A DNA stretch of 64,000 bases from Escherichia coli (GTDB lineage: Bacteria > Pseudomonadota > Gammaproteobacteria > Enterobacterales > Enterobacteriaceae). The translations under genes were made by a program, and so were the position numbers. How positions within the stretch are numbered: position 1 is the stretch's first letter; each line of letters starts with the position of its first letter. Where the stretch lies: the NCBI RefSeq assembly GCF_045037415.1, contig NZ_CP173438.1; one strand, written 5' to 3'. Shown here one piece after another: positions 4,261 to 61,139 of this stretch. The notes under the pieces are model-generated. The model saw only the letters and a list, made by a program, of their open reading frames with translations. It was not told the DNA's origin and ran no database searches.

Positions 4261-4293
4261 GCCGGATGCGACGTTTGATGCGTCTTATCCGGC
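4261..4293. repeat. REP palindromic unit overlapping the 3' end of tilS
   Basis: gccggatgcgacgtttgatgcgtcttatccggc; the tilS stop codon (4285-4287) lies inside it. Confidence 0.7.
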
Positions 4294-5597
4294 TTTCACT
4301 TGACTAAGCGTTTTCTGCCAGACAAAACTGACGCCATTCTCACCTACAGCCACACCTTCTTGCGTCACAAATACCCCTGCCGCCGCAATCAGCGTTTCGC
4401 CATAAAACAGCAGTGGCGTGGTGTCACGTAGCCACGGCGGAACGCCTAACTCTTGCCAGATTTTCTTCAGCTTACGTCCACCGTTGCGCCCGACAATATG
4501 CAGCAGTCCTGGCGCTTTGAAACGCACGCTGACCGCTTCGTCTGCACGCGGAGGGCGAATATCGCCTCCCGCAGTAAGCTGTACACTTCCCAGCCCCGCC
4601 GGTAATTCCAGCGGTTGTAGCCACGTCTGCCACGGCACAATGGTTTCGCTTTGCCCGGCAACGGATTTAATCCACCACAGTTGCGACTGATAGCGGCGGA
4701 TTTCAAACGCGCCCAAACGTAAACAGGGGGAAGCATCTTCCCGCGCCAGCGCCACTTCCTGCCAGATCCGCACCAGCGCCTCGCGGGAAGGCATAGGTGC
4801 ATTCTGCCCTGCCAGCCAGCGGCGGATAATCGCCGCGCGACGGGCATCGCTCATTGCCAGCATTGGCGCAATCTTTAACGTTCCCTGTTGCGTTTGGCAG
4901 TGCGCTAAATCATCCGCCAGCAGTTCATCCAGCAGGCTCTCTTGTTCGGCGCAAAGTGCGGCGCTGCGGGCCGTCGCTTCGGCAAAATGCGGCCAACGCT
5001 GCTGCAATAACGGCACTACGCGCAGGCGCAAGAAGTTACGATCGTAGGAATCGTCTTGATTACTTTCGTCTTCAATCCAGCGTAAATCATACTGACGCGC
5101 CCACTGCTCCAGTTCCCCCGCGTGCGGGCAAGCAACGGGCGGATAAGCCGTGTTCCGGCAAACTCCGAAACTTCCGCCATAGCCGAAAGCCCGGCAGGGC
5201 CGCTACCGCGTTTTAGCGCCAGCAGAAAGGTTTCACATTGATCGTCGAGATGTTGCGCTGTAACCAGCACTTCACCGGGCAACAAGGTACGGGCAAATGC
5301 CTGATAACGTGCCTGCCGCGCCTGGGCCTCAATACCTAGCCCCTCTTGCGCAAGCTGCACACGTTCGACCACCAGCGGCACCTGCCACTGTTGGCAGATG
5401 TTTTCACAATGTTTCACCCAGGCATCAGCATTGGCGCTTAAACCGTGATGCACATGGATAGCGCGCAGAGTGACGCCCGGATTTTCCGTCCGCCACTGCA
5501 CCAGTTGATGCAGTAAGACAGTAGAATCAAGGCCGCCGCTAAAGGCCACCAGAATCTGGCGTGAGGAGAGAAGTTGTCTATTGAGCGTGAGTGTCAT
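4285..5597 (-). pseudogene. tilS: tRNA(Ile)-lysidine synthetase TilS; reading frame interrupted by an apparent -1 frameshift at a homopolymer (possible sequencing error)
   Basis: Two overlapping ORFs, 5016..5597 (PP-loop SGGLDS N-domain) and 4285..5031 (C-domain); the upstream frame goes ...LARTRG then nonsense, the other frame is open and reads [13 protein letters not shown]... from the same point; switch maps to ccccc at 5115-5119. Confidence 0.85.
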
Positions 5598-13434: not shown

Positions 13435-14579
13435 TGTGCTAACTCCAGAACGGCTTGTGCCGCCTGCTCATCGGCATTGCAGCGGATCTGCTGATGCAGC
13501 TCGCGGAAGGTGTCGTGCATCGCATGGCTGGTTTTCCCGTTCGCCAACAGCGGTAACAGCGCCGCAGCCAATTTTTGCGGCTCACACTCTTCCTGCAATA
13601 ACTCTTTGACTAACTCTCTGCCCGCCAGCAGATTTGGCAGCGAGACATAATCAGTTTTCACCAGTCGCTTCGCCAGCCAGAAGGTGAAAGGCTTCATGCG
13701 ATATCCCACTACCATCGGGCATTTAGCCAGCATACACTCCAGTGCTGCCGTACCCGACGCCAGTAGCGCCGCATCACTGGCGACCATCGCCTCACGGCCC
13801 ATTCCATCCAGCAAATGAACCGACAGGTCTGGCGCGACTGCAGCTTTGATGCGTTCAAACTGCTCACGGCGTTTGGCATTCACCAGCGGCACCACGATTT
13901 CGAGATCCGGATATGTCTGGCGCAAAAGCTGGGCCGTTTTCAGGAAATCGGCACTAAGCATTTCGACTTCTGCACCACGGCTGCCCGGCAACAATGCCAG
14001 ACAGTGGGCATCGTAAGGGATCCCCAGCACATCACGGGCACCATTTTTATCTGGATCTAATGGCATGGCATCAGCCATGGTATGACCGATAAAGCGGCAC
14101 GGTACGTTGTATTTGTCATAAAACGCTTTTTCGAAAGGCAGAAATGCGAGCACCAGATCGGTGGCTATGCCTATTTTGAAAACGCGTTTCTGTCGCCACG
14201 CCCAGACGGACGGACTGACGTAATGAATGGTTTTGATACCCTGCTTTTTGAGGTTACCTTCAAGAGTAATATTGAAGTCAGGCGCATCAATACCAACAAA
14301 AACATCTGGCTTCAGTTCGCCAAAACGCTTTGTCAGATCGGCACGAATATGTAGTAAGCGACGCAGACGACCGAGCACTTCAACAATGCCCATCACTGCC
14401 AGTTCTTCCATTTCGTACCAGGCTTCGCAGCCTTCAGCCTGCATTCGTGGCCCGGCAACACCAACAAAGCGGGCGTTGGGCACACGTTCTTTCAGAGCGC
14501 GGATTAAACCGGCCCCCAGGATATCGCCGGAGGTTTCTCCGGCGACCAGGGCAATCGTTAATGGACGCTGTTCAGTCAT
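13431..14579 (-). CDS. lpxB: lipid-A-disaccharide synthase
   Basis: 382-aa ORF; lpxA-lpxB-rnhB coupling. Confidence 0.93.
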
Positions 14580-16959: not shown

Positions 16960-17445
16960 TTATTTAACCTGTTTCAGTACGTCGGCAGTGATGTCTTTTA
17001 CATCGCTGCTGTTGTAAGCAACGGCGTTTGCATCAACAACCAGATCGATATCCTGGCTGTTGGCAACGGATTTCACAGCAGTCTGGATACGAGTAACCAG
17101 TTTGCCGCGTTCTTCGTTGGAACGACGTGCGCGATCCTGCTCAAAAGCCTGCGCTTTCTGAGCAAAAGTCTGGCGCTGAGCCATCACGTCTTTTTCCAGC
17201 TTAGTGCGATCGCTGCCCGCTTTCATGGACTGCAGCTTTTTCATTTTAGCCTGCAGATCGGTTTCCATACGCTGCAGTTCGCTGGCACGGCCTTTGAACT
17301 CGTTTTCCAGCGTGTTAGAAACACCGGTTTTCTGCGCTACCTGCTGGAACAGGCTGCCCATATTGACGATTGCAATTTTGTCAGCCGCCTGAGCAGAAGT
17401 TGCCAGTGCTAAACCAGAACCTGCAGCTAATAACCACTTTTTCAC
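16960..17445 (-). CDS. skp: periplasmic chaperone Skp
   Basis: 161-aa ORF with signal peptide and coiled-coil-rich sequence. Confidence 0.93.
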
Positions 17446-17566: not shown

Positions 17567-20017
<2,451 letters not shown>

Positions 20018-20028
20018 CTAACTAACTC

Positions 20029-21381
20029 TCATAACCGAGAGAAATCATTGAAAAGTGCAAGCCCCATTAACAGCACCAGCAGAATCGAGCCAATGCGATA
20101 ACAAAAGTCTTGAACCCGCTCGGATACCGGTCCGCCCTTGATCTTTTCGATCGCAAGGAACAGCAGATGCCCCCCGTCAAGTACGGGCAACGGAAACAGG
20201 TTAATTATCCCTAAGTTCACGCTAATAAGCGCAAGAAACGGCAGGTAATAAACTACCCCGAGTTCCGCTGTCATCCCAGCCCCCTTGGCGATAGAGATCG
20301 GCCCACTGAGGTTGTTCAGTTTCACATCACCGGTGATCAATTTTCCCAGCATACTGACCGTCAGCTTCATCAACTGCCACGTTTTGTCCGTGGCTTCGAC
20401 GATAGCGTTGAACGGCCCATACTGGCGTACAACTTTATACTCATCAGGCAAAGGAATGACTTTCGGCTCAATACCGACAAAACCAATCGCTTTACCATTA
20501 CCCGGTTTACTCTCCGGGATTAATGTCAAAGACAAGGGACTCCCCTGTCTTTCGATTTCTAACGCTAAGGATTTACCCGGGTTATCCCGGACAAGCATCA
20601 CAAAGGTCACCCACTGCGTTAAGGGCTGACCATCGACTTTAACGATCCTGTCGCCTGCTTGCAAACCTGCCTTGCTTGCCGCCGAGTTTGGCTGCACATT
20701 TTCCAGTACAGGTTCAATTTGCGGCCCACGAGGACGAATCCCCAACGAAGATACCGGATCTTCTTTATCAGGCTCAAACGCCCAGTGACGTAAATCGAGC
20801 TTTACATCCCGCCGTTGGTCGCTGCCAAATGGCGCTACCGTAATGGTGGTGCTTTCATCGCCAATTTTATCGACCAACTGCAAACGCACGGCATCCCAAT
20901 CAGGCGTTTCGATACCATCTACGGCTTTTAGTTCCGTACCTGGTGCAATTTGTGCTTCCGCAGCTATCGAATTGGCTGCTATTTCACCAACCACCGGACG
21001 TACGCCAGGCACACCAATAATAAAAACCAGCCAGTAGGCAAAGATAGCAAAAATGAAGTTTGCAACTGGACCTGCGGCAATAATCGCCGCTCGTTGGCCG
21101 ACAGATTTATTATTGAAGGCATGGTGGCGGAGTTCCGGAACGACCGGTTCTGCGCGCTCATCCAGCATTTTGACATAACCGCCCAACGGGATCAGGGCGA
21201 TAACATATTCGGTGCCGAGCTTATCAGTTCGCCGCCAGAGCGCCTTACCAAACCCTATTGAGAAACGCTCAACGCGAACACCACAACGCCGGGCAACCCA
21301 GAAATGACCAAATTCATGCACGGTGATAAGTACACCCAGTGCAACGATGAACGAAGCCAAATCCCAGAGAAAACTCAGCAT
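20029..21381 (-). CDS. rseP: regulator of sigma-E protease RseP (site-2 protease)
   Basis: ORF track 20029..21426; ATG at 21381 gives [11 protein letters not shown]..., 450 aa, HEFGH zinc motif. Confidence 0.9.
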
Positions 21382-22262: not shown

Positions 22263-23024
22263 TCAGGCTGTTTCATCACCGGGCTCGGTGCCGCCGAAAC
22301 GACGCTCTCGATTAGCAAAGGCATTTAACGCCCCTTCAAAGTCTTGTTCATCGAAATCGGGCCAGAGAACATCTGTAAAGTAAAGTTCGGCATAGGCAAT
22401 TTGCCAAAGCAAAAAGTTACTAATGCGATGCTCCCCCCCAGTCCTAATTACTAAATCTACAGGGGCCAGTTCATGCATACAGACATGCTGGTTTAGCATC
22501 TCTTCATCTATCTGATCTGGTTGCAGGTTTCCTTGCTGCACCTTTTCAGCCAGTTGCCTGACTCCCTGGACTATATCCCAACGTCCACCGTAGTTCGCCG
22601 CAATATTCAGCGTCAGACCGGTATTCCCGGCTGTTAGCGCTTCAGATTTACGAATACGTTCTTGCAAACGCGAGTTAAAGCGACTGGTATCGCCAATAAT
22701 ACGCAGACGCACGTTATGTCGGTGCAGACTTTTTACTTCGCTATCTAGCGCCCACACAAACAGTTCCATTAACGCACTGACTTCCTGCGCTGGTCGGTTC
22801 CAGTTTTCACTACTAAAGGCATACAGCGTTAACGCCTCAATACCGTTGTTGGCCGCAAAAGAGACAGCCCGGCGGACGGATTTTGCCCCGGCTTTATGCC
22901 CAAAGGCACGAATCTTCCCTTGCTTTTTTGCCCAGCGACCATTGCCGTCCATAATGATCGCAACATGACGACAGCCATGCGCTGGCAATTTTTCGCTAAG
23001 TGGTTGAGTAGCAGACAACATCAC
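22263..23024 (-). CDS. uppS: undecaprenyl pyrophosphate synthase
   Basis: 253-aa ORF; GTG start then ATG; HVAIIMDGNGRWA motif. Confidence 0.93.
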   Translation of the reverse strand: MMLSATQPLSEKLPAHGCRHVAIIMDGNGRWAKKQGKIRAFGHKAGAKSVRRAVSFAANNGIEALTLYAFSSENWNRPAQEVSALMELFVWALDSEVKSLHRHNVRLRIIGDTSRFNSRLQERIRKSEALTAGNTGLTLNIAANYGGRWDIVQGVRQLAEKVQQGNLQPDQIDEEMLNQHVCMHELAPVDLVIRTGGEHRISNFLLWQIAYAELYFTDVLWPDFDEQDFEGALNAFANRERRFGGTEPGDETA

Positions 23025-54433: not shown

Positions 54434-54734
54434 AAAAATCCCTTAATTATGAGGTAATACACATGATTCCATTCCAGAGCGACTGGTCAGGGCTTGATAA
54501 ATATTGATATTAGAAATATATCCACCAAATAATATTATTTTTAGATTAGAACAAAAAACACATAGCCTGTCTATACAAACTGCAGTAATAAAACAATAAC
54601 CACATGAATTTTAAAGTGTTGTTTTTATTTTAAGAGTTTAAGGTAATAAAATATAACATAAACCCAAAATATATATTAATGGTCGTATATTCATTAAATA
54701 AATATTTATTTGGTTTATCTAAATGATTTCATTA
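54434..54734 (-). promoter_or_regulatory. AT-rich upstream region of the fimbrial operon (candidate promoter; possible nucleoid-protein silencing target)
   Basis: ~300 nt, visibly AT-rich, immediately 5' of the major pilin gene; no ORF. Confidence 0.4.

Positions 54735-59889: not shown

Positions 59890-61139
<1,250 letters not shown>

Follow-up and report, generated by a model that had tools for sequence, protein, structure and literature searches.

The tilS gene in the 64,000-nucleotide stretch of Escherichia coli DNA analysed here (the window) is out of frame by a single base as assembled. In all likelihood this is an artefact of sequencing or assembly, and the sequenced genome would carry an intact gene with a run of six G (G6) where the assembly has five (G5). 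The shorter run is no chance pattern, being an exact one-base difference from thousands of genomes; insertion of one base repairs the gene exactly, the same loss recurs in unrelated assemblies and in assemblies of reference strains, and it is linked to error-prone assemblies. We infer that the window was assembled from long reads, and that the sixth G is present in the real DNA. Long-read consensus calling would under-call the run, with the loss of one G in the assembly; there would be no frameshift in the cell, where TilS would be made normally as a protein of 437 aa.

Reading frame, repair and identity of tilS

The features of the locus are collected in Table 1. The N-terminal open reading frame (ORF) begins MTLTLNRQ, includes the motif SGGLDS and has the right sequence up to the run, and the frame of the C-terminal ORF stays open across the same five G; for this second ORF, gene callers choose a shorter form of 243 aa that starts with GTG at 5016. 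On the sense strand the sequence around the run is CGC ACG CGG GGG AAC TGG AGC. The length of the assembled gene is not divisible by three. With one G inserted in the run it becomes 1314 nt, matches tilS of the ST131 strain SK1144 at every base, and encodes 437 aa without an internal stop. SK1144 has six G at this place, as has K-12 (NC_000913.3, positions 212809–212814); the length difference is a single base inside a homopolymer, and the repair yields the sequence of close relatives. The preliminary description had claimed that tilS was split at this run and that one more C/G would restore a TilS of about 437 aa. We re-derived every coordinate and reading of the first claim from the sequence, and the second holds to the base.

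Table 1. Features of the tilS locus as assembled in the window
Feature	Position	Strand	Remarks
tilS, tRNA(Ile2) lysidine-34 synthetase	4285..5597	minus	1313 nt, out of frame by one base
G5 run (CCCCC on the plus strand)	5115..5119	minus	site of the missing base; almost certainly truly G6
Putatively artefactual N-terminal ORF, 193 aa	5016..5597	minus	PP-loop residues 1–163, then 30 out-of-frame residues
Putatively artefactual C-terminal ORF, 248 aa from TTG	4285..5031	minus	TilS substrate-binding and C-terminal domains

TilS, an enzyme of the PP-loop type, modifies C34 of tRNA-Ile2 to lysidine. Its gene is reportedly essential in E. coli, and to our knowledge the Keio collection contains no viable tilS deletion. 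The identity of the gene in the window is clear from the repaired product, which scored 808 bits against the NCBIfam model NF007942 over residues 1–431, for an equivalog cut-off of 606; the 193-aa and 248-aa fragments, at 301 bits and 431 bits (the latter over profile positions 195–438), both fell under that cut-off. The PP-loop ATP-binding motif SGGxDS is present as AFSGGLDS at residues 18–25, and PF01171 is recorded on the tilS product. The repaired product also matches, over residues 1–432, chain 1ni5_A (E = 5e-283), from the structure of E. coli TilS (MesJ), 1NI5, with which it shares the SGGLDS motif, and the gene neighborhood yaeR-tilS-rof is the same here. The K-12 protein has 432 aa, compared to 437 aa for the ST131 form, and the gene as assembled here is one G short.

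If the G5 run were real, the two ORFs might be translated separately and their products might assemble as an active split TilS. Both are long, and the GTG of the downstream ORF overlaps the stop of the upstream one (TAGTG) and is accepted by gene callers. However, the break lies within the N-terminal catalytic domain, the match of the 193-aa fragment to TIGR02432 ending at profile position 153 of 189, and residues 164 to about 199 (some 36 residues, the conserved DESN segment among them) are missing from both products. The evidence for an artefact, given below, counts against a split enzyme as well, and we find this reading hardly credible.

A real G5 run could also mean that tilS is a true pseudogene, with AUA decoding rescued from another place in the genome, for instance by a tRNA-Ile whose anticodon is UAU or by a mutated tRNA-Ile1; a suppressor of the latter kind is said to have been obtained for tilS of Bacillus subtilis. 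What speaks for a pseudogene is the out-of-frame assembled sequence itself. We sought a suppressor within the 64-kb window, which contains no tRNA gene, and beyond the one base the gene is that of a functional tilS, showing no decay. Moreover, the recurrence of G5 in unrelated lineages and laboratory strains would demand that a rare compensation had arisen repeatedly. A compensated loss of tilS is thus extremely improbable.

The five-G run among E. coli assemblies

We searched 5,426 RefSeq complete E. coli genomes, of which 5,424 matched a 1.5-kb tilS region, and tilS was present in all 5,424. Only three genomes (Ecol_732, A1.S1.18 and UID2309220015) gave an ungapped match of 100% to this region of the window, the next best all being one base longer; elsewhere in the sequence each of the three differs from the window. 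A probe of 76 bases with the run at its centre, in versions with B2-type and K-12-type flanks, identified G5 with the B2 flank in five RefSeq complete genomes (the same three, A1.S1.126 and RM14723) and with the K-12 flank in seven more (51008369SK1, 26561, DH5alpha CP025520.1, MG1655 CP009685.1, FORC_081, CRE78 and NCTC9038). In total, G5 was found in at least 12 of the 5,426 genomes, and the others that matched have the in-frame G6. The preliminary description had proposed a comparison of the run length with other E. coli genomes, and of the 5,424 genomes nearly all have G6. PGAP annotated tilS as 'frameshifted' in all six carriers inspected, among them Ecol_732, A1.S1.18 and UID2309220015. 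The literature on a tilS frameshift or homopolymer yielded nothing of use apart from the methods published for Ecol_732.

The carriers are scattered over ST131, other B2 and K-12-like lineages, indicating that the allele was not inherited from one ancestor. We also considered a real inherited allele in Ecol_732 and UID2309220015, which both come from Bangkok and have two SNPs in common, and rejected it, since K-12 strains, RM14723 and other B2 lineages have G5 too.

Assemblies of reference laboratory strains serve as a control. The missing tilS G is the sole difference between the MG1655 assembly CP009685.1 and NC_000913.3 in 40,077 aligned bases, a stretch with seven more G/C runs of at least 6, all of them right, and the DH5alpha assembly CP025520.1 shows the same lone indel in the tilS run. 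Six G are present in CP032667.1, a further assembly of MG1655. The record of CP009685.1 gives its source as ATCC and its country as 'USA: Menlo Park'. In both CP009685.1 and CP025520.1, tilS is annotated as a frameshifted pseudogene, the locus lying at 19559–20856 of the segments that we extracted. Since otherwise clean assemblies show G5 here although the reference has G6, the tilS run appears to be a particular hot spot of under-calling in consensus sequences. The window, where the tilS run alone among five true G/C runs of at least 6 is short and the sequence is otherwise clean, has the same pattern, and so has Ecol_732. For the latter, a PacBio HGAP3 assembly, the authors went through MiSeq pileups by hand to mend small errors (PMC4958194), yet G5 was retained; no further frameshift occurs in these 64 kb. 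The cleanness of the window and the retention of G5 in Ecol_732 both count against a miscall.

Other carriers bear the marks of error-prone assemblies. A1.S1.18 carries frameshifts in rpsB, ispU, bamA, dnaE and a fimbrial usher gene within these 64 kb, each caused by the loss of one base from a short run; in RM14723 a G6 run and a G5 run of the essential gene rseP are each one G short, and skp is frameshifted in UID2309220015. The exact 193-aa fragment is encoded by GenBank contigs of more than 1 Mb, and between these and the window there are 3–18 gaps and no more than one mismatch over 6.6 kb; substitutions at CCWGG (Dcm) sites mark one carrier, and several have losses in A/T and G/C homopolymers. 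One mid-size contig that we looked at, L037 (132 kb), lacks another seven single bases within 10.5 kb. GCA_037022785.1 matches the window exactly over 6.6 kb, and differs from it at 14167. The case for a miscall is weakest for two Logan contigs from other B2 lineages, SRR30896461 and DRR393627, in which the tilS G is the only difference from the nearest complete genomes in 13.2 kb. Extrapolated from the assembled length, their far end lies at about window position 22414, the fourth A of an A5 run and 19 bases before the C7 run of ispU, and a contig of the sister run ERR5984419 begins within that C7 run. A k-mer assembler would be expected to break at such places if run lengths varied among the reads, a suggestion that depends on the extrapolated ends.

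These properties resemble the G/C homopolymer deletions of long-read platforms (PacBio RS II, Oxford Nanopore), which share with the tilS case the loss of one base from G6 and its independent recurrence, including in reference laboratory strains; in other carriers the tilS loss is accompanied by additional homopolymer losses and errors at Dcm sites. Unlike the usual error of this kind, the tilS run fails far more often than its neighbors, seven of which are right in the 40 kb of MG1655. A homopolymer miscall had been the first choice of the preliminary description, and it is supported by the same loss in unrelated lineages, by the MG1655 and DH5alpha assemblies, and by the error-laden carriers.

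The sizes of the contigs that carry the allele are consistent with this explanation. The exact 193-aa fragment occurs in about 218 contigs, corresponding to 264 index blocks, of which 24 belong to contigs of more than 1 Mb, 220 to contigs of less than 20 kb and only two to contigs between 50 kb and 1 Mb, the typical size of contigs in short-read isolate assemblies. For the intact 437-aa protein, 21,603 of 29,858 blocks have a longest contig of 50 kb–1 Mb, and since blocks list only the longest contig, sizes are inflated for this abundant protein and the contrast is semi-quantitative. A Fisher test on the block counts by size, G5 against intact, was performed, and its p-values were set aside owing to the longest-contig bias. 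In semi-quantitative terms, a real polymorphism present in 0.7–1.5% of chromosome-scale contigs should not drop to about 0.01% at short-read sizes. Taking block sizes and lineages together, and with the same caveat on longest contigs, the distribution of G5 tracks assembly type and not phylogeny.

It is also conceivable that G5 is real and that full-length TilS is produced by recoding, either through -1 slippage of the P-site tRNA-Gly on CGG-GGG-A or through transcriptional slippage. In the former case GGG would re-pair with GGG and the next codon would be GAA; in the latter, RNA polymerase would add a G, and both routes would give the wild-type protein. A -1 shift on the run yields the wild-type sequence RTRG-ELEQW exactly, G5 occurs in several lineages and in two contigs that are otherwise identical over 13 kb, and Ecol_732 retains it after checking with MiSeq. 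TilS is a low-abundance enzyme, and so little product might suffice. If recoding did occur, slippage would keep an essential tRNA-modification enzyme viable, and some of the scattered G5 calls would be true, tolerated alleles. Programmed -1 frameshifting, as in E. coli dnaX (A AAA AAG) and insAB' of IS1, offers a precedent in which a frame change on a homopolymer can make one protein from two frames. However, tilS differs from these systems in having no tandem slippery heptamer, no stimulatory structure and no conserved shifted arrangement. The heptamer X XXY YYZ is absent in the zero frame (ACG CGG GGG AAC), where neither G CGG GGG nor G GGG AAC lets both tRNAs re-pair, leaving room for nothing more than single P-site slippage; AAC, the codon that follows, is common. 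The 93 nt downstream fold no better than shuffled sequences (-26 kcal/mol, compared to -23.1 +/- 3.0 for the shuffles, z = -0.95), and five G is a short run for transcriptional slippage. The out-of-frame arrangement is not conserved, in-frame G6 being the norm and G5 occurring in at least 12 of 5,426 genomes. The same G5 call is found in MG1655 and DH5alpha assemblies, where the reference has G6, and contigs of 50 kb–1 Mb are almost devoid of it. We therefore consider recoding very improbable. The preliminary description had named a compensated lesion and ribosomal frameshifting as alternatives to a miscall; neither gained positive support, there being no tandem slippery heptamer and no downstream structure, and the break lying inside the catalytic domain.

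Sequence differences elsewhere in the window

The window is a segment of E. coli chromosome from proS to pcnB, more than 99.97% identical to ST131 genomes; compared in 24-kb pieces, it is not identical to any of the RefSeq complete genomes. Apart from the tilS run, it differs from close relatives in skp at 17416–17418, on the minus strand, where at codon 10 three adjacent bases are changed, GGTTCT standing for GGTCTC, and Skp would carry the change L10S. Nineteen public contigs share this three-base change, and they belong to lineages 98.4–99.98% identical to the window; UID2309220015 has GGTTCTC at this spot, a one-base insertion that shifts the frame. A three-base change that recurs in different lineages argues for a systematic artefact of base calling, and this is the most likely reading of the skp sequence, in preference to a polymorphism. 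It suggests in turn that the window comes from an assembly that was made from long reads and was otherwise well polished.

Methylation at GGTCTC was considered as a cause of the putative skp miscall; there is one other GGTCTC site in the window. This sequence (GGTCTC/GAGACC, the BsaI/Eco31I site) occurs once in the 64-kb window, at 37376–37381, compared to 18 +/- 4.7 in shuffled sequences and about 10 under a fourth-order Markov model. In 40 kb of K-12 it occurs three times against 9.7 expected, and it is among the rarest 1–2% of hexamers.

The remaining differences from close relatives are few. At 54618, in the spacer between a fimbrial operon and mrcB, one copy of a TTGTTT tandem pair (6 bp) has been lost relative to Ecol_732, A1.S1.18 and UID2309220015, the three ST131 genomes with which the window was aligned at base level; the change may be genuine, through slippage, or may be one more error of assembly. 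The same spacer contains IS1 in at least one relative (strain 23779), and five other top matches align there in two pieces with an insertion-sized gap. Beyond this we found two or three SNPs. At 14167, in lpxB, the window has A, unlike most ST131 genomes; this base is common to A1.S1.18, in which it gives the LpxB variant WP_029700980.1. At 61083, in sfsA, the window again has A, unlike most ST131 genomes, and this base is absent from all three genomes compared.

Two general features of the sequence were also observed. Runs of five or more on the plus strand comprise 30 of C and six of G, an asymmetry that is probably due to gene orientation and replication strand. The spacer between yaeF and nlpE contains, at about 1810–1850, a REP-like element (gccggatgcggcgtgaacgccttatccggcctac), and several k-mer-assembled public contigs stop there.

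Implications for E. coli genome assemblies

Under the favoured explanation, the split of tilS holds no biology to report, and the gene is almost certainly intact. The G6 run (NC_000913.3, 212809–212814) would mark a particular site at which long-read consensus calling tends to fail, and this essential gene would stand falsely pseudogenised in at least 12 RefSeq 'complete' genomes and in about 200 further public contigs. The run could be used as a quick quality-control marker for E. coli assemblies. The case also carries a warning, that a lone frameshift in an essential gene should not be taken as evidence of gene loss or of recoding.
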